IMG/VR virus record: IMGVR_UViG_2617270964_000006
Coordinates: 1-19,599 of that record
Length of the DNA stretch: 19,599 nt
Source: a virus
Taxonomy: Duplodnaviria; Heunggongvirae; Uroviricota; Caudoviricetes
Direction: 5' to 3' (one strand)
Positions 3,709 to 15,450 of this stretch are shown here, piece after piece (within the stretch, counting starts at the first letter, position 1; each line of letters begins with the position of its first letter). A model generated the notes under the pieces. That model ran no database searches, was not told the origin of the DNA, and saw nothing but the letters and a program-made list of their open reading frames with translations. The position numbers and the translations under genes are program-made.

Positions 3709-4509
3709 TTAACCGCGCTTTGCCTTCTGCGTCGCGGTGGTTTTTCGTGTTGCAGGCTTCTGCGTTGTCTTTTTACTTTTGCTGCTTTCGTCCTGCGTCT
3801 GCTGTGCGCTGGCGTCTTCTGGTGCGGCTGCGGAATCGGCTTTTTTCAGGGCGCGGGAAAGGGTTGCAATCTCGCGTTTCACACCTGCGTTCGGGTTCAG
3901 GTGCATCGCTTCGCGCAGCAGCTTCAGTGATGAGGCCATGTTGTCTGCATCGGTCAGGCCACGACGGGCAAAGGCACACGCCTTGCATAATTTGGCGCGC
4001 ACTTCGTCCGGCATGTCCTGGTTGGCGACAATTTCCCAAAGTGTGTCCAGTGGTTCGATAAAGGCGGATAAATCCGCGTCGGCATCCGTCCCGGCCTGCG
4101 TCAGTACCGGGTTGCAGATTTCTTCGGTCAGTACCGTGGCAGCAGTACGGCCAAAGTTATCCGGCATGATGAGGTTGTGACGGACCACATATGCACCAAT
4201 ACGCAGCGCCAGCGGAAGATCGCCGCAGTCAATCGCCCACACCATCAGCGTGGCAATTACTTCGTCCTGTTGCCCGCCGTCAGTCTCCAGCGTTCCCTCA
4301 ATCCAGCCGGAAAAGTCCGGCAACAACTCTTTTTTGATGGCGGCTTTCGCGCTTCTGGCCTGTACGCCCTTTAGCCTGGCCTGTGCCAGACGCAGACGAT
4401 ACAGCACCTCTTCATGCGCGGTACGCGCGGCGTGGTCCACACCTTCATTCGCCCGGCCTGCGCGCTGTGCCATCACGTTCTGCCAGTGTTGTTGTGCAGG
4501 AGTAATCAT
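3709..4509 (-). CDS. M: P2 gpM-like terminase small (endonuclease) subunit
   Basis: 266 aa, ATG with GGAGAG RBS, basic K/T-rich C-terminal tail; position between N and L. Confidence 0.8.
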   Translation of the reverse strand: MITPAQQHWQNVMAQRAGRANEGVDHAARTAHEEVLYRLRLAQARLKGVQARSAKAAIKKELLPDFSGWIEGTLETDGGQQDEVIATLMVWAIDCGDLPLALRIGAYVVRHNLIMPDNFGRTAATVLTEEICNPVLTQAGTDADADLSAFIEPLDTLWEIVANQDMPDEVRAKLCKACAFARRGLTDADNMASSLKLLREAMHLNPNAGVKREIATLSRALKKADSAAAPEDASAQQTQDESSKSKKTTQKPATRKTTATQKAKRG

Positions 4510-4554: not shown

Positions 4555-5607
4555 TTAGCTGTCGGCGAACTTCAGGCCAGTGATCATCGCGCACTTGCCA
4601 TAGTCTTCAACGACATAAGCGTCATTGATGGACTGGTAGGTGGCGATGCGGTTGTATTCCGGCTCGTCTTTCATCAGGCGACGCATTGAACCTTTCTGCC
4701 AGTAAATCGACAGGTTGTTGAACGAGGTGATAAGCATCGTTGCATCCGGGAAGAACGGCGCAAGGAACACGCCCAGCCCGCCAATGGTGCGCGATGACAG
4801 GATGAGCTGCCCGGCAAGTAATTCCGCATTGGGATTCTGGCCGCTGATGCTGTTCAGCACGGGCAGACGCAGCGAGTTAAACAGGTTGCGCCCCATAATC
4901 ACCGCGAGGTCGTCAGCTTCCTTGTGCCATTCATCCAGCAGGGATGAGCGCGCATCCTGTACCAGAGCATCGGCATTCGCATACTTACCCACGTGCGCCA
5001 CAGTGTTGTCCATGTTGCGGGAGGTCAGCGTCACGTCATTCATTACGCGCTCGCTGGCATCGGTTCTGATGTGCTCCAGCCAGCCCACGTTAACGTCCTG
5101 AAGCAGCTTGTTGGTGTGAAAATCAGACTCGTAGGCGTGGGATGTGCCGTTAAAGCCAATCATGATGCGATCAAGCGCTACCTGCCGGGCGATCTGTGTA
5201 CTGATACGGGACTGAAAATCGCTGTGGGCCGCCCAGGTATCAAGCTGTGGGTACGAAATAAAGGTATCGTAGTTCACCTGTTCGCACTGGTACTGACGAG
5301 ACTTCATATCGATCACGTTATTCGGGTTACGGCGTTTGATGCCGTCATAACTGCTATTCGTGCGCGCAATTGGCCCGGTGGTGTCCAGGAGGATTTTTTC
5401 GCCTTTCTGGTCGGTCACGCCGATCACGTTAATTCTTTTCGTAAATTCGGTACTTTCCTTTGAGGCGTTTTCAAAACGCTGCTGCACCGCGGGTTCCACG
5501 GTAAATCGCGATACCAGTGCAGATACCGGGATATTGTTAAGCGACGCCTGCTGCGCCATATAGCAACCCAGCTTGTTGCGGGTAATATCTGACATCACCA
5601 GATTCAT
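4555..5607 (-). CDS. N: P2 gpN-like major capsid protein
   Basis: 350 aa; ATG with AAGGAG RBS; size and position (after scaffold O) match the P2 head module. Confidence 0.9.
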   Translation of the reverse strand: MNLVMSDITRNKLGCYMAQQASLNNIPVSALVSRFTVEPAVQQRFENASKESTEFTKRINVIGVTDQKGEKILLDTTGPIARTNSSYDGIKRRNPNNVIDMKSRQYQCEQVNYDTFISYPQLDTWAAHSDFQSRISTQIARQVALDRIMIGFNGTSHAYESDFHTNKLLQDVNVGWLEHIRTDASERVMNDVTLTSRNMDNTVAHVGKYANADALVQDARSSLLDEWHKEADDLAVIMGRNLFNSLRLPVLNSISGQNPNAELLAGQLILSSRTIGGLGVFLAPFFPDATMLITSFNNLSIYWQKGSMRRLMKDEPEYNRIATYQSINDAYVVEDYGKCAMITGLKFADS

Positions 5608-5630: not shown

Positions 5631-6467
5631 TCAGAAGTCAGCCAGCTGGTCGGAGGCTGCGCCCGTTGCGGTGAAGCGGTTCTGCGGATCGCCGTCCTGC
5701 GTGCGCAGTTTTTCCTTCAATGCTGTCAGCTCTGTGGTCAGTGACGTGATTTTCTGGCGGTCCTGCTGATGGCGGGTTTCCAGCACATTAAAACGGTCGA
5801 TAATGTCGGCCTGTGACGTTGCAACGCCTTCCACCGCTTCCTGAATTCGGGAGAAACTGGCGTCATCCGCTTTGCGGCCACGACCAATAATCCCCATTAC
5901 GCGGTTAAACCACTGGGTGCCTTCTTCCTGGCGTTGTTCTGCCATTTCGATGATTTCAGACTCGATGGCTTCGGAGATAAGCGGTGCTTCACCCTGGATA
6001 CTGTTGAACGTCATCACCGCCTGACGTTGCTGTGCCGTGAATTTCAGGCGCTCAGTGCCCAGGCTTGCCGGGGTGTCGGTCATCGCCAGCCCGACCAGAT
6101 AGGCGCGCCCGTTAACGGAGAACTGCGGGTGCAGTTCGATACTGGAATAGATTTTCTTGCCGTCCGCGACAAGCTGCTTCATGCGTTCGGTAGGTTCGAT
6201 TTCTGCATACAGCGCAGTACGTCCGGCCAGCGGACCTTCCGTAATGTCTTCCGTACTCAGTGCGGTGACATCGCCCATTGCGGAAAATTCGCTTGACGGG
6301 CATGGCGAGAGATAGTGCTCAACGTTCACACGGGCAGCGTAAACATCCGGGTTGAAGTTCTCGGCGGCTTCACGCAGATGCACCGGGCTGATTTCGCGGC
6401 CATCAACAGTTGATCCGGAGACAGCCACGCGAAACTTTTTGCGGGATGTCTTTTTTTCATTAGCCAT
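5631..6467 (-). CDS. O: P2 gpO-like capsid scaffolding protein
   Basis: Start at ATG 6467 (GAGGGG RBS) gives MANEKKTSRKKFRVAVSGSTVDGREI..., recalled as matching the P2 gpO N-terminus. The track start at 6500 has no SD. Confidence 0.85.
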   Translation of the reverse strand: MANEKKTSRKKFRVAVSGSTVDGREISPVHLREAAENFNPDVYAARVNVEHYLSPCPSSEFSAMGDVTALSTEDITEGPLAGRTALYAEIEPTERMKQLVADGKKIYSSIELHPQFSVNGRAYLVGLAMTDTPASLGTERLKFTAQQRQAVMTFNSIQGEAPLISEAIESEIIEMAEQRQEEGTQWFNRVMGIIGRGRKADDASFSRIQEAVEGVATSQADIIDRFNVLETRHQQDRQKITSLTTELTALKEKLRTQDGDPQNRFTATGAASDQLADF

Positions 6468-6621
6468 AGTTTTTGCCCCTCTGACTGGTTCTTCAGTCAT
6501 GATGGCAAAGCGTAACAGGCTGATACAAAGGGCTTTTGTTGTAAGAAAACGGCCAGAACAGGGGGTTAAGGAGAACGGTTTCGCGCGCGGGTAATCTTCC
6601 TGTAATTACTCAGGGGGAGCA
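6468..6621. promoter_or_regulatory. divergent late promoter region for the O operon and the P-Q operon
   Basis: 154-bp spacer between divergent O and P starts, with imperfect dyad ACAAAG-GGC-TTTTGT (6525-6539) about 90 bp upstream of the P ATG. Confidence 0.4.
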
Positions 6622-8373
6622 ATGATTCAGGACGCTTTTGTGCGCCAGCGTGCGCGGCAACTTTACTGGCAGGGTTATCCGCCCGCAGAAATATCACGTC
6701 TGATGGGAATAAACCCGAACACGATTTATGCGTGGAAAAAACGCGACCAGTGGGATGAAACGCCACCCGTGCAGCGTGTCACGCAGTCCATCGATGCGCG
6801 CCTCATCCAGCTTACTGAAAAACAGAATAAAACAGGCGGTGACTTTAAGGAAATAGACCTGCTGACCCGGCAGCTTAAAAAAATGCATGATGGCCAGCCG
6901 GATGCGACGGCCACAGGAAAGAAAGGCCGGGCGAAAAAACTCAAAAATCATTTCACGCCGGAACAGATTGCCGCACTGCGGGAAAAAATCATCAGCAGGC
7001 TGGAGTGGCATCAGCGGGGCTGGTTTGACTCCCTGACCCTTTGCAGGGAAGCCGGGATACGTAACAGGATGATCCTGAAATCCCGACAGATTGGCGCGAC
7101 CTGGTATTTTGCACAGGAAGCACTGCTGATGGCGCTGCGTGACGATGTGGCGCAACCTTACCAGCGTAACCAGATTTTTTTGTCTGCGTCGCGTCGTCAG
7201 GCGTTCCAGTTTAAAAGCATTATTCAGAAGGCTGCGGCTGAAGTTGATGTGGAGCTGAAAGGGGGCGATAAAATCATCCTCTCCAACGGCGCAGAGCTGC
7301 ATTTTCTTGGTACTTCTGCTGCGACGGCACAGTCCTACACGGGCAATTTTTATTTTGATGAATTTTTCTGGGTCAGTCGCTTTGCTGAACTGCGCAAGGT
7401 GGCTGGCGCTATGGCAACCCTCAGCGGACTGCGGCGCACCTACTTCTCCACGCCATCCACCGAAACGCACGAGGCATACGCCTACTGGAACGGCGACCGC
7501 TGGAACGAGAAAAAGGCCACGCATAAACGCCAGCGTTTTTCTGTGGACTGGAAAACGCTGCATAACGGGCTTATCTGCCCTGACCGGACGTGGCGGCAAA
7601 TTGTCACGCTGGAAGATGTGGTTAAACACGGCTGGAAACACACCGATATCGACGAAATTCGTGATGAAAACACCGAAGACGAGTTCCTCAATCTCTATAT
7701 GTGTGAGTTTGTCCGCGAAGGGGAATCGGCATTTAACCTGAATATCCTGATTGGCTGTGGTGTTGACGGATACGACGACTGGAAAGACTGGAAACCTTTT
7801 GCTCCCCGCCCGATGGGGAATCGTCCGGTATGGATTGGGTATGACGCAAACGGCAGTAGTGGCAACGGCGACAGCGGCGCTGTGTCCGTGGTGGTTCCTC
7901 CGGCTGTTCCTGGAGGCCGTTTTCGAACGGTGGAGACGCGACGCGTTCAGGGGCTGGAGTTTGAAGAACAGGCCAGAGTCATTGAAGAGTTCACGTGTCG
8001 CTACAACGTGGAACACATCGGCATTGATGTGACAGGCGGGAACGGGGAGGCTGTTTATCAGATAGTGAAACGGTTTTTCCCTGCTGCTATTCCGTACACC
8101 TTCACGCTGTCATCAAAACGGTCGCTGGTACTGAAAATGCTGCAAATAATGCGTGCCGGGCGGTGGGAATACGATCGCGCCGAACGCGAGCTGGTCGCGG
8201 CCTTTAACGCCGTGCGTAAGGTGAAAACACCGGGCGGCTTTATCACTTACGAAACGGACCGAGCGAGGGGGATCAGCCACGGCGACCTTGCGTGGGCAAC
8301 CATGCTTGCTGTCATTAACGAACCGATTGGCGGCGAAGGAGAAAACGAGCGTTTCACGGTTATGGAGTTCTGA
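6622..8373 (+). CDS. P: P2 gpP-like terminase ATPase (large) subunit
   Basis: 583 aa; GGGGGAG RBS; N-terminal HTH-like LYWQGYPPAEISRLMGINPNTIYAWKK and ATPase core; stop overlaps the Q start (TGATG). Confidence 0.95.
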   Translation: MIQDAFVRQRARQLYWQGYPPAEISRLMGINPNTIYAWKKRDQWDETPPVQRVTQSIDARLIQLTEKQNKTGGDFKEIDLLTRQLKKMHDGQPDATATGKKGRAKKLKNHFTPEQIAALREKIISRLEWHQRGWFDSLTLCREAGIRNRMILKSRQIGATWYFAQEALLMALRDDVAQPYQRNQIFLSASRRQAFQFKSIIQKAAAEVDVELKGGDKIILSNGAELHFLGTSAATAQSYTGNFYFDEFFWVSRFAELRKVAGAMATLSGLRRTYFSTPSTETHEAYAYWNGDRWNEKKATHKRQRFSVDWKTLHNGLICPDRTWRQIVTLEDVVKHGWKHTDIDEIRDENTEDEFLNLYMCEFVREGESAFNLNILIGCGVDGYDDWKDWKPFAPRPMGNRPVWIGYDANGSSGNGDSGAVSVVVPPAVPGGRFRTVETRRVQGLEFEEQARVIEEFTCRYNVEHIGIDVTGGNGEAVYQIVKRFFPAAIPYTFTLSSKRSLVLKMLQIMRAGRWEYDRAERELVAAFNAVRKVKTPGGFITYETDRARGISHGDLAWATMLAVINEPIGGEGENERFTVMEF

Positions 8374-9419
8374 TGAGCAGAAAAAATAAAAAAGTGCGCA
8401 TGAGTTCACGCATTGATCTCGCTGATGCGCTCAGGAAAGAATCATCGCTCAGTGCATTCACTTTTGATGGTCCTTATCGCCTGACCGGGCATGATTTGCT
8501 GGACAATATGTACTGTGCTGATAACGGGCGGTGGTATGAAACCCCGGTGGACTGGTACGGTCTGGCAAGAGCCGCCCGGCAAACGTCCTGGCATCAGTCT
8601 GCGCTTTACTTTAAGCGCAATGTATTGCTCGGTTGCTATATTCCGCACCCGCTGCTTTCCCGGCAGGATTTCTCGGCGCTGGCGCTGGACTGGTTTGTGT
8701 TCGGTAATGCATTCCTTGAGCTTCGAAGCAATATGCTCGGCGAACCGCTTAAATTACGGCACGCCCTGGCGAAATACATGCGACGCGGAAGCGATCTTGA
8801 ATCATGGTGGTATGTGCAGGATGGTAAGGACGCGTTTCAGTTTCGCCCTGGCAAAGTGTGCCACCTGATGAATCCGGATATTAACCAGGAAATCTACGGC
8901 ATGCCGGAATATCTCGGCGCATTACTCTCGGCCAGCCTGTCTCATTCGGCGGACATGTTCAGAAAACTGTACTACGACAACGGATCCCACGCCGGGTGCA
9001 TCATCTACATCGGTGCAGCGCAGGTAAACCGCGAAAGCATGGACTCCCTGAAAGAAACGCTACAGGGGGCACGTGGTGGTGGTGCGTTTAAAAACGTGCT
9101 CATTCATGCGCCCAACGGGGGCAAAGAGGGGGTGCAAATTTTGCCGTTCCAGCAGATCACCGCAAAAGATGAATTCATGAATGTTAAGGCGGCATCCCGT
9201 GATGATGTGCTGGCTGCGCACCGCGTTCCGCCGCAACTGATGGGGGCGATGCCGGGCGAAAAAAGTGCGTTTGGCGATGTGGAGAAGGCAGCGCGGGTTT
9301 ACGCAATTAACGAGCTGATGCCCGTCATGGAGGCTATGAAGCACATCAATGGCTGGCTTGGCGAAGAGGTGATCCGTTTTAACTCTTATGCTCTTCTTGA
9401 TGAAAAAACAGCCCCGTGA
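8373..9419 (+). CDS. Q: P2 gpQ-like portal protein
   Basis: 348 aa, translationally coupled to P; P-then-Q order on one strand, convergent with A, as in P2. Confidence 0.95.
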   Translation: MSRKNKKVRMSSRIDLADALRKESSLSAFTFDGPYRLTGHDLLDNMYCADNGRWYETPVDWYGLARAARQTSWHQSALYFKRNVLLGCYIPHPLLSRQDFSALALDWFVFGNAFLELRSNMLGEPLKLRHALAKYMRRGSDLESWWYVQDGKDAFQFRPGKVCHLMNPDINQEIYGMPEYLGALLSASLSHSADMFRKLYYDNGSHAGCIIYIGAAQVNRESMDSLKETLQGARGGGAFKNVLIHAPNGGKEGVQILPFQQITAKDEFMNVKAASRDDVLAAHRVPPQLMGAMPGEKSAFGDVEKAARVYAINELMPVMEAMKHINGWLGEEVIRFNSYALLDEKTAP

Positions 9420-9436
9420 TGGGGCTGTCCTTTTTA
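9402..9436. terminator. bidirectional intrinsic terminator between Q and the convergent 174-aa gene
   Basis: Stem ACAGCCCC (9408-9415) / GGGGCTGT (9421-9428), loop GTGAT, flanked by an A-run on one side and TTTTT on the other, so a U-tract follows the stem on either strand. Confidence 0.6.
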
Positions 9437-9958
9437 CCAGAGTTGAACCATTTTCTGGGTGCCGTCAGGCTTGAGATTATCAATTTCAGAGAGAACGTAA
9501 TATTGAATGGCTTCACAAACGGTGGTGTAGGGTGAATTACCTTCTTTAAGTGGCACGATATTATTATTAACGCGAACCTGTATTTCATCGTTATACATTG
9601 CGATCGAAACAGGAGTGTGCACGAACGCGACTTCGCCAGGTGTGTCGTCAACCACCGTTTCAATACTAAAAGTCAGTTTTCGCTCATCATTGCTGCCCCG
9701 TGCTTTGGGGGTAGCGGCAGGGATCTGGGATAAAGGCATTCTGCGAAATCCTTCGGCTGCTTCCAGTCCGCATGAAACGTAATGCTGGCGATTACCGTCG
9801 CTATCTGTCCAGGTCTGTGATGGCAGCTCCAGCGAGATTTCATAAGCATCAACAATGCCCTGGGCAAGGCGCACAAGCGGGGTCAGATCTTCATTGCGGC
9901 GAAAGCTCTCCTTTACCTGCTCCCGTTTTTCTCTTAACTGCTTGTAATTAATGACCAT
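9434..9958 (-). CDS. hypothetical protein (174 aa), orphan cargo gene next to the portal gene
   Basis: ATG at 9958 preceded by GGAGG 9 nt upstream; MVINYKQLREKREQVKESFRR...; no motif I recognise; composition visibly more AT-rich than the flanking structural genes. Confidence 0.6.
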   Translation of the reverse strand: MVINYKQLREKREQVKESFRRNEDLTPLVRLAQGIVDAYEISLELPSQTWTDSDGNRQHYVSCGLEAAEGFRRMPLSQIPAATPKARGSNDERKLTFSIETVVDDTPGEVAFVHTPVSIAMYNDEIQVRVNNNIVPLKEGNSPYTTVCEAIQYYVLSEIDNLKPDGTQKMVQLW

Positions 9959-10057
9959 AAGACAGCCTCCATTGATTTCTTTGCTCGTATTTTGCACTTA
10001 TGAAGTATGGTCGGCAAGGTGCCGTATCGCTGACGCGCTTCGCTTGTCTGCTGCTTC

Positions 10058-10086
10058 GCCGGGGCATAAAAAATTTATGCCCCGGC
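10058..10086. repeat. perfect 13-bp inverted repeat with 3-nt spacer
   Basis: GCCGGGGCATAAA-aaa-TTTATGCCCCGGC; no U-tract on either side, so a protein-binding palindrome or structural element rather than a terminator. Confidence 0.5.
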
Positions 10087-10385
10087 TCTCCAGCTCCTGT
10101 ATCAATCAGATAATTTCACGACGCCTTCCAGTTTATCGCCACCATCGACGGTCAGACTCTTACGCAATTCCACCGCGTTGACTGTATGTTCTCGCTGCCT
10201 CAGTGCGATTTTGACGGCCTTACCTTTCACCCCATCAAATCAAAAGCCCTCACGCCTTTTTCATGCTCAGCGTGAGAAATATGGCCATTCTGTTGTGTCT
10301 CTGCGACATCGTTCAGGGAATGCTATTTACCCCCTGAAACGCGGGCTGTTCCCCCGTCACCTGCGCGCAGAAAAAATGCGTTTTT

Positions 10386-10491
10386 TTGTGCACGCACGGA
10401 TCCTTGACGGATCCAGCCACCATGCGGGCTGGAAGGGTAAAAAGTCGTTCAAAAAAATTGTGCAAATTTGTGCACAATTGTGCATTGCGCA
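10386..10491. repeat. array of TTGTGCA heptamers with embedded palindromes
   Basis: TTGTGCA at 10386, 10458, 10468, 10478 (last three phased at exactly 10 bp); the latter two lie in the perfect palindrome TGCACAATTGTGCA (10471-10484); also GGATCC-TTGAC-GGATCC (10398-10414). Confidence 0.5.
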
Positions 10492-10507
10492 CTTGTTATA
10501 AATAAAC

Positions 10508-10532
10508 AAAAAAAGAGCCGCTATTGCGGCTC
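10508..10532 (-). terminator. intrinsic terminator of the HTH-peptidase/PIN operon
   Basis: Stem GAGCCGC / GCGGCTC, loop TATT; on the minus strand followed by TTTTTTT; about 35 nt downstream of the PIN stop. Confidence 0.65.
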
Positions 10533-10565
10533 AATATAATCCAATATGGCAAGAGAGATTTGGAT

Positions 10566-11084
10566 TCATTCGAAACTGGCAAGAATCTGTTCTCGAACAG
10601 AAGATTTCATCGTTAACCCACGATCTAGGAAAAATTGGAAATGCATTAAGGCTTGTTGTTTGTGGATAAGTCTCCTGTGCACAGCCTCTTGAAGTAGCCC
10701 TCCGTGGCGGGCGGCTTTTACACCGCGTTCCGCACACGTTTTATAAACCGCATTATCCGCCGAAAGACATGTTGCATCATGTATTCTCGCGTTAACAACG
10801 CAGCTTATGTCCGCATACTTCAATGCTCTCCTGCGATTTTTTATCTCAGCCATTTCAATAAAATGTTCAGGTTCGTAATCATTGGTGAAATTGTATGGAA
10901 GTTGCAGGCGTGTAAGCTGTTCCTGAACATCAAGATTGTATTTAGCTTTTAGTTCCTCGCAGACATAGGGGTCAATCCACACACCACCCGGGTAAATTTG
11001 CCAGATAAGATCTAAGCATTTACCTTCGTAAAAATCAGACAGTACATTCGTATCGATAACACATCTGGGGCATTCAAACGGCAT
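10566..11084 (-). CDS. PIN-like nuclease domain protein (candidate toxin/effector)
   Basis: ATG at 11084 with AGGAGG RBS, overlapping the upstream gene's end by 11 nt. MPFECPRCVIDTNVLSDFYEG... has the PIN strand-1 motif (V-I-D-T-N-V-L) and further acidic residues (CEEL, YADIS, IHDAT). About 172 aa. Confidence 0.6.
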   Translation of the reverse strand: MPFECPRCVIDTNVLSDFYEGKCLDLIWQIYPGGVWIDPYVCEELKAKYNLDVQEQLTRLQLPYNFTNDYEPEHFIEMAEIKNRRRALKYADISCVVNARIHDATCLSADNAVYKTCAERGVKAARHGGLLQEAVHRRLIHKQQALMHFQFFLDRGLTMKSSVREQILASFE

Positions 11085-12219
11085 CCTCTCCGGCCTCCTG
11101 TTCGTCGTACCATTCATCCAGAAGATTGCTGAGAGCTTTTCTGTCTAATTCTAAAAGTTCAGATATGAAGGTTTCCGACGCGGAACCGGCTTCCCATGCT
11201 TTACGCGATAAGACGGTTAGGCGGCCTTTATAATTTAGTGCTTCCCTAATGGGATTTGGCTCGTGTCTCTTCCAACCTTTACGATTGGCGGTTGCCCATA
11301 GGTATCTAGTGTTTTGTTGATTAATTAAATTACATTTACTAAGACGATCGATGATGCAAGTGGCTGATACTCTGAAAATGCTTTTTAGTCTAAGGACGGT
11401 TTCCTCATACGCCCATCCACCACCTTGCATGACGAATTGTTTTCGCAATGCGCTTTCTGGTACCAAAAAACAAGCAGCAAAGTGATTAGCAACTTTTTCT
11501 TCCGGTGAAATTGCTTTGCCATTGGTTTTATAGCTTTTAGCAGGGCCATCATACTCATCACGGTGGAAGATAAGATGAGCATATTCATGGCAAATACTGA
11601 AGATTTGACGTTCTATTGAAATGCTATCGTGAACATTTACATAAATCGCGGTACCGTATTTGTTCGAAAACGCAGAAAATCCGAATACCATCCCTTTATC
11701 AGTTTCTTCGCGATTGAACGGGATTACTCGAATATCCGATGCTTCCAAAATGGCTACAATGTCACCAACGCAAGTAGCGTTTCCTATACCAAGACGGAAA
11801 CGTTCTTCCATAGCCTTATCTTCGACTCTTCGCAAATCTTCTGCTTTGGCGGTAAAAATAGGCATTGAGTTAGGAAGATCTTCTGGCAAATTAGCATCTG
11901 CAGCTTCCTCAATTGCATTGATATTTTTTAACTTTTCAATCAACTCATTGCGAAGTTTGGCATCCAACAAATCCGGACTATCTGCTCGCATTGCAAAACG
12001 AAACTCGCCATCATCTTGCTCATAAAAATACCCGATAGGCTTATCGAAAATCTTGCAGAGCATGATGAGTTGGGTAACGCTTGGGACGCCTAGCGCCTGC
12101 TCAAACTTACTGTAGGTTTGACGAACAACACCGATCGCATCTGCGACGGCGCTTGCACTCATTCCTGCGTCGTTTCTGGCCTGAACCAAGCGTTCTGCTA
12201 TACGCTGTTGAATGTTCAT
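11074..12219 (-). CDS. XRE-family HTH fused to ImmA/IrrE-type (M78, COG2856) zinc metallopeptidase
   Basis: 381 aa; N-terminal HTH (RIAERLVQARNDAGMSASAVADAIGVVRQTYSKFEQ); HEXXH zinc site in SICHEYAHLIFH; AGGTGA RBS; AT-rich coding sequence. Confidence 0.85.
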   Translation of the reverse strand: MNIQQRIAERLVQARNDAGMSASAVADAIGVVRQTYSKFEQALGVPSVTQLIMLCKIFDKPIGYFYEQDDGEFRFAMRADSPDLLDAKLRNELIEKLKNINAIEEAADANLPEDLPNSMPIFTAKAEDLRRVEDKAMEERFRLGIGNATCVGDIVAILEASDIRVIPFNREETDKGMVFGFSAFSNKYGTAIYVNVHDSISIERQIFSICHEYAHLIFHRDEYDGPAKSYKTNGKAISPEEKVANHFAACFLVPESALRKQFVMQGGGWAYEETVLRLKSIFRVSATCIIDRLSKCNLINQQNTRYLWATANRKGWKRHEPNPIREALNYKGRLTVLSRKAWEAGSASETFISELLELDRKALSNLLDEWYDEQEAGEDAV

Positions 12220-12340
12220 ACGTCACCTGAATTTAACAATGGTGGCTCTTATGGGTTTAGATTGGTTAATTATTACTAACATTATGAATGGAGAGTTGCA
12301 AAAATCATAGTTAAATTATGCAAATTTCATGGAGCGTGAT
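12220..12340 (-). promoter_or_regulatory. AT-rich upstream region of the HTH-peptidase operon (putative sigma70 promoter/operator)
   Basis: Read on the minus strand: TTGCAA-17 nt-TAGTAAT candidate -35/-10, plus TTGCA/TGCAA partial inverted repeats. No experimental support. Confidence 0.3.
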
Positions 12341-12447
12341 GTGGTGTGGGTTCACACTCTCTGCTGATTACATCTAGGGCGGTTTCCGCCCTGGCTCTGC
12401 TTACTCAGGAAATAGCGCCCGGATATTTCCGGCCATCTGACTGGTTA

Positions 12448-12552
12448 TCTGTGCGGTTGGTACTGGCTGTGACACGGGGCGTTCTGTCCTGGGCCGTTCT
12501 CAGTCCATGCCAGCTTGATGTTGGTGGAGCCGTCATCGATACAAATTTTCAT
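12448..12552 (-). pseudogene. 34-codon remnant resembling the N-terminus of a ParM/StbA-like actin ATPase
   Basis: MKICIDDGSTNIKLAWTENG... versus the R1 ParM start MLVFIDDGSTNIKLQW as I recall it; AAGGAAAA RBS; in-frame TAA after 34 codons, with no continuation in any frame. Confidence 0.4.
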
Positions 12553-12583
12553 GTCGCTTTTCCTTATGTTGATTAATTAATCG

Positions 12584-12693
12584 TTTACGGGATTCTGAAA
12601 TCCCGTTTTCGCCTGTTTTGCGCGCGCTTCATATATCGCGGCGCGTTTTTTGCTCATTTACGGGATTTGTGAATCCCGTTTCTGTCTGTTTTT
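12584..12693. repeat. duplicated ~37-bp hairpin elements at the 3' end of gene A
   Basis: Copy 1 12584-12619 TTTACGGGATTCTGAAATCCCGTTTTCGCCTGTTTT; copy 2 12657-12693 TTTACGGGATTTGTGAATCCCGTTTCTGTCTGTTTTT (overlaps the last A codons); between them a GC-clamped AT-core hairpin followed by TTTTTT. Confidence 0.5.
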
Positions 12694-15450
12694 GTTTCCA
12701 CTGGTCAGGACACCCCGCAGCAGGTCTGCTTTGCGGCGGGCGCGTTCAGTGGTTTCACTGATTCTCTGTGCGTGCTCTGCGTCACGGATGGCGCGCAGCA
12801 TGTCAGAAAGCACGGTAACGGGAGTTTTCATGGTGTTCTGGTCCTGCTGAATTGTGGATGCCAGGCGTGCAGCGGCTTCAGGGTCTGATGCCCCGAGCTG
12901 TTTCAGATAGCTGGAAATCGGGTTATGGCGGATTTCCGTGCTGTTTACGCCGTGATTACGGCTCAGGCGCTGCCAGAGCTGCGTGATTCGGCTGTCCGGT
13001 CGGGTATCTGGTTTGCGTACAATTTCAAATCCCTGCGGTGCAATGATGCTGCCGTCAACGTACAGACTGCCGCCTCGTAACAGGTGCTGCATCTGCTGTT
13101 CACCGATATGCAGGCCGAGAGATTCGGCAGATTCCCGCCATTCTTTAGCGAGTAATTCGTGGTTATCAGGCAAAGGCCGCTGATGTTTGCGGCTCTGTGT
13201 CCAGCTCTGCATTTCATCGCTGCTGTTTTTTGTCTGTTTGTCACGAAGCGAACGCATCAGCGCCCGGCGTTCGTGTCGTTTCAGTGAGCGCATCCATTCG
13301 TTCACTTCAACGCCGTCAGGGAGCTGCGGCCACGGTGCTGGCCGTTCTTCCGGCTGTTCTGTCCCGTTGTTGTCCGTTTCCTGTACACGGGGACAGTTAT
13401 TGCCACGAGTCCAAGGGGCGGCAGGGCCGCCCTGAAGGTCAAAACCATTTTCGCGGGAGCTATCTTCCGCTTCCGGTTTGCGTCTTACCAGCTTCCAGTT
13501 ATCCGGATGCGTGCATACGCGGGAAGACTCCCCGATGAGCGGCGACCAGATCCCGTAAATCTGTACACTCTGCTCACCGTAATCGTTCAGTTCATCTGCG
13601 AGGTCGTAGGCGGTGCGAATCAGGTAGTCTTTGCGTGGAACAAGCACGCCACCCTGTTTTTCAATGTAGGTGGCAAAACACCCGGCATCAGCGGCAGCGA
13701 GTACCGCATCCATTGCGTCATCCTTCAGCCGTTGCGGGCCTTCCGGGTTGCGTGCCATCTGGCTGGCAAGGCGGCGCAGTTCACGCCACACCTGACGGGA
13801 GGGGATACCAAAGAACTGGAACTGGCGGATTCGGTGAAGGCGCGCCCAGCCGATGGCGCGTTCCACGCTCTCGGCCATTGATTTTCCGGTTTCGTGGTCA
13901 ACGCGTGGCTTGCCCGTTTTCGGGTCGATGCCATCCACGGCGCGGCTGTCCAGGTTCTTTCCGATGTAGGTGGCGATGTAGCTGGTTGGCGTGCCTTTTG
14001 AGCCGTCGACGTACTCCGCCTTAAAACGCGGAGTTATGTCATCGCCCAGCTCGTGGCGGTCTTCCTGAATGGCAATATCGCAGACGTGGGACACGATGGT
14101 TTCAATCTCGTCCGGATGTGCAAAGACCATCATATGCCAGTGCACAGTGCCGTCATGGTGAGGCTCCACCGTGCGGATGCCATACCAGCGCAGACCGTCG
14201 CGGTTCAGTTTTTTGCGGACCGCCGCAAAAAACGTGTTAACCAGATAATCGCTGGAGTCGCGCATGGTGGCCCCGTTCCATTTGGGGTTCGGATGACCGT
14301 TCTCTGTTGTAGCGTGGTATTTTGACGGGCAGGTGACAGTCAGAAACACCGCTCTGTCGCCACGGGCTTCGGCCAGAAGTTCCAGCCCCTTCATGGTGGC
14401 CATCATTTCTGCCTTACGGTGAACCGGGTTACTTACTCCCGCGTAATACACTGTCTCGAGATCAATCGTGAACCCGTCTTCGTTTTCCAGCATGAAACTT
14501 TTCAGGAAATCGCGTGTTTTCTCGCGCTGTGCGCGAAACTCGCTTAACGCGTCCTGGCTCAGATAGGGCGATGTTTTTCTGGAAACCAGACAGGCGGCGC
14601 GGAGTTGTTCTTCTCTCCACTCGCAACGTAACAGCCACAGTTTGCGTTTCCACCATTCCGCACAGGTCAGGCGAAGGATTGCGCCCGGCAGCAGTTCTGT
14701 GTCCGGTTCGTTCCTCCGGTCTTTGTCTGTTGTCAGTGCGTCATAATGCGGAGGCATGGCGTGCAAGTGTAACGCCATGCGGGCCAGCATCTGATACGCC
14801 TTCAGCGTTACATCCATGGTCAGCTCGCCATCAGTCGCGCCAAAACCATCGCAGAGTTTTTCGAAGGTGCTGCTGAACATCGCCGCCGTCATGGTGGCCA
14901 GCGTCTGTATCTGGTGTTTGTTGAGTTGCGGCAGGGAAAGCAAATCGTCCAGGCGTTCACGTCCGGCAAGGGACCGATAACCCGGTGTCAGCCAACGGCT
15001 GTCGGTGCGGTCCAGACGTACGAATATTTTGCGCAGGGTTCCGCGTGCATAGCGTTCCGCCTGCCAGCTCTTTTTGCCTTTCCGGCGATCGGCTTCCTGT
15101 TTTTTGCGCAGGAAGGAGAGGTGGCGAATAAGCGGATCGCGCAGATAGGACGGCAGCAGGCGCAGCGAGGCCATGGCTTCATCCACCGCGCCACGTGCCT
15201 GTTTTCTGGCTTCTCTGGCCAGTGTGATGGTTTTGTCCTGTTTTTCCTGTGCGTCCAGGCTTTTATTAATCAGGTTGCCCAGCGGCGTGGCGGAGAACGC
15301 CGCATCAGCCATTTCCTGGCGGCGCTCGTTCTCTGCCCGGTAGGCATCCAGCCAGGAGGAAAGCTCGGATTCAGGAGCGGGGATTCCCGTTCCTTCACGA
15401 CCCACTGCGTGGCGCGGTTGTTGCCAGTCCCTGATGTACTCTGCCGTCAT
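12658..15450 (-). CDS. A: P2 gpA-like rolling-circle replication initiator (HUH endonuclease)
   Basis: 930 aa; HUH motif in VEPHHDGTVHWHMMVF; convergent with Q across the cargo locus, as in P2. Longer than the ~760 aa I recall for P2 A, implying an extra C-terminal region. Confidence 0.9.
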   Translation of the reverse strand: MTAEYIRDWQQPRHAVGREGTGIPAPESELSSWLDAYRAENERRQEMADAAFSATPLGNLINKSLDAQEKQDKTITLAREARKQARGAVDEAMASLRLLPSYLRDPLIRHLSFLRKKQEADRRKGKKSWQAERYARGTLRKIFVRLDRTDSRWLTPGYRSLAGRERLDDLLSLPQLNKHQIQTLATMTAAMFSSTFEKLCDGFGATDGELTMDVTLKAYQMLARMALHLHAMPPHYDALTTDKDRRNEPDTELLPGAILRLTCAEWWKRKLWLLRCEWREEQLRAACLVSRKTSPYLSQDALSEFRAQREKTRDFLKSFMLENEDGFTIDLETVYYAGVSNPVHRKAEMMATMKGLELLAEARGDRAVFLTVTCPSKYHATTENGHPNPKWNGATMRDSSDYLVNTFFAAVRKKLNRDGLRWYGIRTVEPHHDGTVHWHMMVFAHPDEIETIVSHVCDIAIQEDRHELGDDITPRFKAEYVDGSKGTPTSYIATYIGKNLDSRAVDGIDPKTGKPRVDHETGKSMAESVERAIGWARLHRIRQFQFFGIPSRQVWRELRRLASQMARNPEGPQRLKDDAMDAVLAAADAGCFATYIEKQGGVLVPRKDYLIRTAYDLADELNDYGEQSVQIYGIWSPLIGESSRVCTHPDNWKLVRRKPEAEDSSRENGFDLQGGPAAPWTRGNNCPRVQETDNNGTEQPEERPAPWPQLPDGVEVNEWMRSLKRHERRALMRSLRDKQTKNSSDEMQSWTQSRKHQRPLPDNHELLAKEWRESAESLGLHIGEQQMQHLLRGGSLYVDGSIIAPQGFEIVRKPDTRPDSRITQLWQRLSRNHGVNSTEIRHNPISSYLKQLGASDPEAAARLASTIQQDQNTMKTPVTVLSDMLRAIRDAEHAQRISETTERARRKADLLRGVLTSGNKNRQKRDSQIP

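Follow-up and report, generated by a model that had tools for sequence, protein, structure and literature searches.

Introduction

Between the portal gene and the replication gene of a P2-family prophage lies a short stretch of DNA with several copies of one heptamer, TTGTGCA, and the question is what these repeats are for. The DNA analysed here, which we call the window, is the whole stretch of 19,599 nucleotides. A preliminary description, made from its letters, proposed either an operator for the HTH protein of the neighbouring cassette or a packaging signal close to cos. We show that the offsets of the repeats from a P2-type cos are fixed and that the repeats are also present in P2, 186, Fels-2, the Pseudomonas P2-like phages and the satellite P4. 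This comparison strongly supports reading them as a packaging signal. The copies are probably the two parts of a helically phased, putative recognition element on the right-end flank of cos, and the distal array is best read as the distal half of a two-part candidate terminase recognition site, by analogy cosB-like.

Results

The window and its genes

The prophage is P88-like, and its nearest annotated relatives are the P88-like phages (Xuanwuvirus and allies). Its map is reversed relative to that of P2, since the portal gene gpQ is found at 8373..9419 on the plus strand. The TTGTGCA array is placed between Q and A, the location of cos and of the old/tin cargo in P2. The features are listed below in their order along the window; the cos segment at 10345-10363 is an alignment-based prediction.

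3709..4509, minus strand: small terminase, gpM homologue (Pfam Phage_term_smal, 1.4e-36)
4555-5607, minus strand: capsid gene gpN
5631-6500, minus strand: scaffold gpO
6622..8373, plus strand: large terminase, gpP homologue (Pfam Terminase_5, HTH_23, Terminase_6N, Terminase_6C)
8373..9419, plus strand: portal, gpQ homologue (Pfam Phage_portal; 99.7% identity to the annotated portal of vB_EcoM-569R5)
10345..10363: predicted cohesive-end segment of cos, GCTGTTCCCCCGTCACCTG (MAFFT alignment to the reverse complement of the P2 19-nt cos)
10362..10396: inverted repeat and T-run, TGCGCGCAGAAAAAA / TTTTTTGTGCACGCA, linking cos to the proximal repeat
10386..10392, plus strand: proximal TTGTGCA (TGCA at +37 from the CCCCG anchor; invariant in alignment A1)
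10393..10457: spacer, holding ACGGATCC twice, a GC dyad and an A-tract (10450-10457)
10458..10484, plus strand: distal array of three TTGTGCA with 10-nt phasing (TGCA at +109, +119 and +129)
10485..10565: beginning of cargo-specific DNA (homology break in A1)
10485-10491: degenerate TTGCGCA inside the cargo-specific DNA
10515-10532, minus strand: terminator of the cargo operon (terminator scan)
10566..12219, minus strand: cargo cassette, separate from the repeat element
10566-11117, minus strand: PIN-domain protein of the cassette (Pfam PIN, 4e-5; weak PADLOC PDC-S70 match)
11074-12219, minus strand: Xre-HTH/M78 peptidase of the cassette (Pfam; PADLOC RmrA, 2.8e-35)
12658-15450, minus strand: replication protein gpA

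The Xre-HTH/M78 peptidase gene overlaps the downstream PIN gene by 44 nt, and the two form a RosmerTA-like pair with a PIN-type partner. In P88, Shae_phiSM, Chuche and 569R5, parM/parR-like genes separate gene A from the cargo. None is present at 12220-12657 of the window, whose variable region therefore extends from the end of gene A up to the array. Across cos from the array there is a 187-aa ORF (9434-9997, minus strand; phrog_5091) with no match in Pfam or PADLOC. It lies within an insert of about 610 bp between the portal stop codon and the conserved region left of cos, which is present in 569R5 and absent from P88, Shae_phiSM and Chuche, and which looks like a second cargo site on the opposite flank of cos.

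A local cluster of repeats in non-coding DNA

On the plus strand TTGTGCA starts at 10386, 10458, 10468 and 10478, and on the minus strand at 10471. This agrees with the four copies, three of them at exact 10-bp spacing, of the preliminary description, and the arrangement is far beyond chance. A search for the heptamer elsewhere in the prophage, also suggested there, revealed no enrichment across the whole window, either for exact copies (6 against 5.1 expected) or with one mismatch (58 against 85 expected). Five of the six exact copies cluster within 100 nt, for about 0.026 expected per 100 nt, and we estimate the probability of such clustering by chance at less than 1e-7. Because the window-wide count is near or under expectation, the cluster is a local feature. 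In the distal array a 9-nt unit, AATTGTGCA or ATTTGTGCA, recurs at exactly 10-nt spacing, and the overlap of the plus-strand copy at 10478 with the minus-strand copy at 10471 forms the palindrome TGCACAATTGTGCA at 10471-10484. The GGATCC dyad, ACGGATCC-N3-ACGGATCC, occupies 10396-10414 and the GC dyad TCCAGCC/GGCTGGA occupies 10412-10433 of the spacer. A-tracts lie ahead of both the proximal and the distal TTGTGCA sites. A GC-rich inverted repeat (CGCCAGnnCTGGCG-like) recurs in mid-spacer in P4, 186, Fels-2-like and many P2-like loci, though not in P2.

The region had been described as apparently non-coding, and this holds: the ORFs in 10000-10560 have no Pfam match and the array is conserved as DNA, at fixed offsets. 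Three kinds of candidate were rejected. Coding sequence is one, as the ORFs at 9951-10181, 10178-10501 and 10313-10492 match nothing in Pfam and the array is kept as DNA in non-homologous contexts. A known RNA is another: no Rfam family reaches its threshold in the repeat region, and the only two sub-threshold matches score about 26 bits against gathering scores of 100-134. The last is a late-promoter dyad of the Ogr/delta type, TGT-N12-ACA. The window has TGTgcaaatttgtgcACA, but its relatives read ACT instead of ACA, and the TGT is missing in P2, P4 and 186.

The array belongs to the phage backbone

The P88-like set consists of 80 IMG/VR loci with a portal 98-100% identical to that of the window, and the array is retained in this set; its variants and junctions were counted over 78 related loci. 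Conservation in related elements, whose lack the preliminary description named among the grounds for refutation, proved very high: the array is near-invariant in these 78 prophages, with variation nearly confined to the three bases between pentamers, and its layout is kept in P2, 186 and P4. In eight annotated relatives the DNA from 10030 to 10484 is 92-99% identical to the window, and the similarity stops exactly past the third GTGCA. Because homology to other phages ends at the repeats, these are part of the phage backbone and not of the cassette. Downstream, the cargo junctions of the 78 loci fall into at least 34 different classes, all starting at the same nucleotide (10484/10485), with a few cutting into the third repeat (TTGTGCG, CTTGCA). 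The junction of the window is common to only one other locus among the 78 (L045). About half of the classes open with an inward-pointing terminator right after the array (16 of the 34 by the scan, plus the class of L015 by reading).

These junctions bear directly on the proposal of an operator, according to which the HTH-M78 peptidase (RmrA-like) would bind the repeats to regulate the adjacent PIN/HTH cassette. Phased direct repeats are typical of cooperative repressor binding, so the arrangement would suit the Xre-type HTH protein encoded 600 nt away. Yet the same repeats remain when the cargo changes across at least 34 junctions, and they are found in P2, 186 and P4, which lack the cassette. 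They also stand at the wrong end of it, past its terminator and at its 3' end instead of its promoter, and not a single copy of TTGTGCA occurs upstream of the HTH gene, in 12220-12657. As parts of the backbone, at which homology to other phages ends, the repeats are scarcely credible as an operator of the cassette, and this half of the preliminary proposal has to be abandoned.

Two other elements of that proposal were seen in the window, at the positions given above, and turn out to be of narrow distribution. The perfect palindrome occurs in just one of the 78 related loci, the others having TGCACTATTGTGCA, TGCACTTTTGTGCA or TGCACTATCGTGCA. The GGATCC dyad is restricted to the P88-like lineage and is missing in phiT5282H, Kp4877-2, L536 and L539. 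By this comparison, both are lineage-specific and neither is the conserved feature, so the emphasis once put on the two was misplaced.

One might also speculate that the array is a parC-like centromere for the ParM/ParR genes of P88-like phages. Phased direct repeats of about 10 bp are the kind of site that ParR proteins bind, and parM/parR-like genes are annotated within 1-2 kb in P88, Shae_phiSM, Chuche and 569R5. But the array is intact in the window, where no parM/parR separates it from gpA (12658-15450) and where the only large ORFs of that interval encode the PIN protein and the HTH-M78 peptidase, none of them parM-sized. The annotated cos-adjacent regions of P2, 186 and P4 list no partition genes and have the same architecture. 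Finally, the array keeps fixed offsets from cos, while variable cargo separates it from the par genes. We attach almost no weight to this reading.

A fixed layout beside cos

The alignment to the cos regions of P2 and 186 that had been proposed as a check, here made with P4 as well, revealed a cos-like core with the same layout. Positions 10345-10363, downstream of Q, align with the reverse complement of the P2 19-nt cos as the homologue of GGCGAGGCGGGGAAAGCAC, only about 10 of the 19 positions being identical between the window and P2 in this MAFFT alignment of cos cores. An nhmmer profile built from 8 cores found the core in 77/80 P88-like, 79/80 P2-like and 74/80 Fels-2-like loci; for the Pseudomonas set only 13 of the 80 contigs were usable, most ending near cos. 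ST13-OXA48phi12.1, YenM_42.18 and FLC5 are outside these counts; the 2 kb that follow their portal yielded no cos core. The record of phage Chuche (L005) lacks 7 nt (CTGTTCC) inside the predicted cohesive-end segment, at columns 323-329 of A1. Misassembly at the virion termini may account for the gap and would be consistent with where cos is predicted.

Outward from cos come an inverted repeat and T-run ending in the first TTGTGCA, then the spacer, then the distal triple array. The first TTGTGCA lies about 25 nt from the cos-like core, and the proximal GTGCA is separated from the first distal GTGCA by 72 nt, start to start. In the passages of PMC9594776, PMC5694545, PMC3931495 and PMC9122126 that cite Ziermann & Calendar 1990, the cos of P2/P4 is given as 19-nt cohesive ends in a 55-bp core. 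We found that, at a minimum of 94% identity, the longest stretch common to P2 and P4 measures exactly 55 nt (GCGCGC...TTTTAATGCA) and ends at the proximal ATGCA. The window block 10339-10392, ending in TTTTTTTGTGCA, is collinear with it, and the inverted repeat and T-run at 10362..10396 are the positional equivalent of the hairpin plus TTTTAATGCA in this core. After the 55 nt, P2, P4 and 186 are mutually unrelated for about 67 nt, until the ATGCA island; the distal array starts 67 nt past the end of the core. On this alignment it is outside the 55-bp P2/P4 core as quoted by PMC9594776, PMC5694545 and PMC3931495.

The layout is thus not peculiar to the window. In P2, 186 and P4, TTTTAATGCA adjoins cos, and 72 nt further on comes ATGCA-N5-ATGCA followed by a third ATGCA. 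The 72-nt spacing between proximal and distal sites and the 10-nt phasing of the latter are found in P2, 186, P4, phiT5282H and Kp4877-2. The last two, of which phiT5282H has 72% DNA identity and Kp4877-2 a portal 68% identical, carry the GTGCA version, the partner at 72 nt in Kp4877-2 being a degenerate GTGCG. The pentamer follows the clade: GTGCA in P88-like, ATGCA or ATGCG in Fels-2-like and CTGCA in Pseudomonas P2-like phages, with the pentamers of the latter two at the same offsets as in other P2-family loci. Counting from the CCCCG anchor, TGCA is found at +37, +109 and +119 in the P88-like, P2-like and P4-like sets and at +37, +119 and +132 in the Fels-2-like set, where +109 is usually ATGCG. 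A third distal TGCA follows at +129 (or +132) across clades. For comparison, the background frequency of TGCA in these anchored sets is about 0.02 per position.

Between clades the length of the spacer is conserved and its sequence is not. Across 66 unique P2-like sequences, per-column information drops to nearly zero past the core, and the distal pentamers are the only place where it recovers. An exact RTGCA-N4-6-RTGCA stands at the distal position in 31 of 48 unrelated spacer clusters, against a background of 0.3%, and most of the remaining clusters have one-mismatch versions (ACGCA, ATTCA) with the same phasing. In P2-like loci the DNA is variable on both sides of the array, which persists as an island. 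Short repeats beside cos, at positions conserved across clades and with clade-specific pentamers, are what a cosB-like element would be expected to present.

This geometry matters for a further alternative, control of the transcription of the hotspot cargo, with the last repeat acting as the -35 element of an outward promoter. There is a precedent in P2. Its old-tin transcripts have mapped starts 30-32 nt beyond the third ATGCA, and TTGAAT, suitably spaced from these starts to be the -35 hexamer of the old promoter, overlaps this third copy. Moreover, TTGTGC resembles TTGACA, and the cargo genes of some relatives point away from cos. However, a scan of 9900-10700 found no sigma-70-like promoter in the window, where the feature that follows the array is a convergent terminator, and inward terminators likewise follow the array in about half of the junction classes. 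P4-like elements have no gene downstream of the array, which they carry in the interval from the end of psu to cos. A promoter would also leave the fixed 72-nt distance and the conserved offsets from cos unexplained. A transcriptional role in some phages, secondary in P2, is possible; as the account of the array itself, we regard promoter function as very unlikely.

Satellites and elements sharing only the signal

The satellite P4 shares nothing with P2 except cos. All 61 of the 61 unique P4-like sequences have ATGCA-N5-ATGCA-N8-ATGCA at the same offsets as P2. In them the array is flanked by psu on one side and cos on the other, and the P4 hotspot lies beyond cos. To these we can add elements with the GTGCA version. 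An exact-match scan for TTGTGCAAAYTTGTGCAC gave 120 loci, 105 of them with a P2-type portal match, and in 103 of these 105 a P88-type cos core is found just upstream of the array. Where distances are listed, the portal gene precedes the array by about 340-1000 nt (mostly about 370). The matches of L434 and L514 to this 18-mer are two-copy and inside AT-rich coding DNA, and were set aside as due to chance.

Two loci are of particular interest here. L539 (928-13613) is a satellite-like element and encodes an integrase, a gpO-like protease/scaffold, a gpN-like capsid, a gpM-like small terminase and a P4-alpha-like primase, and no portal or large terminase was found in its 13.6 kb. It has a cos-like core plus the GTGCA array, with 71 nt between the proximal and distal sites, and its only blastn similarity to the cos region of the window is the 34-bp distal array. 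Its gpO-N-terminal-like protease/scaffold is 44% identical to the gpO of the window, and its gpM-like protein is 29% identical to gpM while the array is identical. L536 (1-4500), with no portal in the 4 kb upstream, combines a P88-type cos and array with genes for a gpN-like capsid protein and a MazF-like protein. Its DNA matches the window from cos onward, and the match breaks off exactly where the array ends. Together, P4, L536 and L539 present the pattern expected of a cis-acting packaging signal copied by hitch-hiking elements.

Could the array instead be a recombination target, or another structural element, that drives the exchange of cargo, or else a site for a host nucleoid protein, and not a contact of terminase? 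The hotspots of P2 and P4 both abut cos, and recombination there has been speculated (Rousset et al. 2022, PMC9122126). All our cargo junctions begin at one nucleotide position, right behind the third repeat, with a few cutting into it, and the A-tracts ahead of both groups of sites would fit as well. Yet in P4 the hotspot and the array are on opposite sides of cos, and an island between two stretches of variable DNA, as in P2-like loci, is expected from selection and not from a crossover point. A common host protein is difficult to reconcile with a first base, A, G or C, that is specific to each clade, which argues for a reader encoded by the phage. We consider these possibilities unlikely, though less so than the other alternatives.

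If the repeats are a packaging element, the array would be the outermost required cis-sequence, and we infer that for this reason it fixes the inner boundary of the cos-adjacent cargo (defence) hotspot. Selection on the array would explain why this boundary does not lie further in. It would not explain why the cargo keeps no extra shared bases.

Which protein would read the repeats

The fixed separation of 72 bp, the 10-bp phasing and the clade-specific first base suggest, taken together, that an oligomeric DNA-binding protein encoded by the phage acts at both sites. P2, P4 and the other satellites have no machinery in common other than terminase, which makes it the obvious candidate. Its large subunit, gpP, has an N-terminal HTH at residues 6-63 (Terminase_5/HTH_23). 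Over residues 1-50 the protein of the window is 92% identical to that of GTGCA-type genera with an overall gpP identity of about 77%, and only 34-40% identical to that of the ATGCA-type P2 and Fels-2. The HTH (residues 1-60, window 6622-6800) is the most conserved part of gpP among phages with the GTGCA array, and among the least conserved parts in comparison with ATGCA-type phages. Such a pattern is the one expected of a specificity domain. Naturally, it must be interpreted with care, since the pentamer classes coincide with clades and the covariation of protein and site is therefore confounded by phylogeny.

The small subunit gpM is the alternative. A domain-wise comparison found no class-specific conservation at its N-terminus, and the L539 protein, only 29% identical next to an identical array, argues against it. 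No solved structural homologue was found for either gpP or gpM. The HTH of gpP is most plausibly the reader and our leading candidate, with gpM in second place. A more specific proposal, which we put forward tentatively and think has the lesser chance of being right, is a two-part TGCA code, with one site at +37 and a 10-bp-phased array at +109/+119/+129 from cos, kept exactly 72 bp apart. It would be read by the HTH of the large subunit and not by the small subunit, and the first base (A, G or C) would define the packaging-specificity group. Satellites, both P4 and the type with capsid and small-terminase genes of its own, would have to copy little beyond this code for a given group of helpers to package them.

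Discussion

From the computed position, phasing, conservation, pentamer classes and sharing with satellites, we infer how protein binding, a reader and a role in packaging might fit together. One site lies about 25 nt from the predicted cohesive-end sequence and three more 72 bp further out. As 72 bp are roughly seven helical turns, these sites are on nearly the same side of the helix. The phage terminase would bind the TTGTGCA sites through several DNA-binding domains, probably the HTH at the N-terminus of gpP or else those of gpM, with the spacer bent or wrapped between the proximal and distal ones. As with lambda cosB, such binding would bring the nuclease to cos and label the DNA for packaging. 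What may be new in this proposal is an element beyond the quoted 55-bp core, its strict geometry and, maybe, its reading through an HTH of the large subunit of terminase.

If the distal array is required, the functional packaging signal of P2 and P4 would be about 150 bp long and not the 55 bp usually quoted. This would bear on the design of P2/P4 cosmids and phage-like particles. Large and unexplained differences in transduction efficiency have been described between cos fragments of different length (PMC9594776). A required array would also explain mechanistically why the P2 defence hotspot (Rousset et al. 2022, PMC9122126) has its inner boundary exactly where it does. The packaging compatibility of helpers and satellites might then be predictable from sequence, through the ATGCA, GTGCA and CTGCA classes, and a terminase family with no solved structure would gain a candidate reader domain.

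How does this element compare with known systems? With the cos of P2/P4 it shares the location beside the portal gene Q, a homologous GC-rich cohesive-end core, and a hairpin, T-run and proximal NTGCA that match the end of the 55-bp core. It differs in having GTGCA instead of ATGCA as its pentamer and in the distal array beyond the quoted 55 bp.

As a kind of element, it would be a cos accessory recognition element analogous to lambda cosB, i.e. to the gpNu1-binding sites R3-I1-R2-R1 beside cosN. Both consist of short repeats split into a nick-proximal site and a distal cluster, with a spacer that would have to bend, and both are specific to a phage group and adjoin the nicking site (here the predicted cos). 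There is, however, no relationship in sequence: the window has direct repeats of 5-7 nt with strict 10-bp phasing, and no IHF consensus was identified in its element. The reader of cosB is a winged helix of the small subunit, whereas the candidate here may be an HTH fused to the large subunit. Location differs too, the element of the window being on the right-end flank, away from the packaging genes. Since cosB is on the side that is packaged first, the analogy would be imperfect if the right end of P2 is packaged last, as in the older literature. The P2-type terminase, for its part, cuts monomeric circles (PMC2231350).

The closest parallel for the sharing of the signal is P4 itself, which is packaged by the P2 terminase through a common cos. 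P4-like elements carry the ATGCA version at identical offsets, and L536 and L539 carry the GTGCA version. Neither of the latter two is P4-like in gene content: a portal and a large terminase are missing from both, P2-type capsid genes are present in both, and L539 has a scaffold-protease and a small terminase besides.
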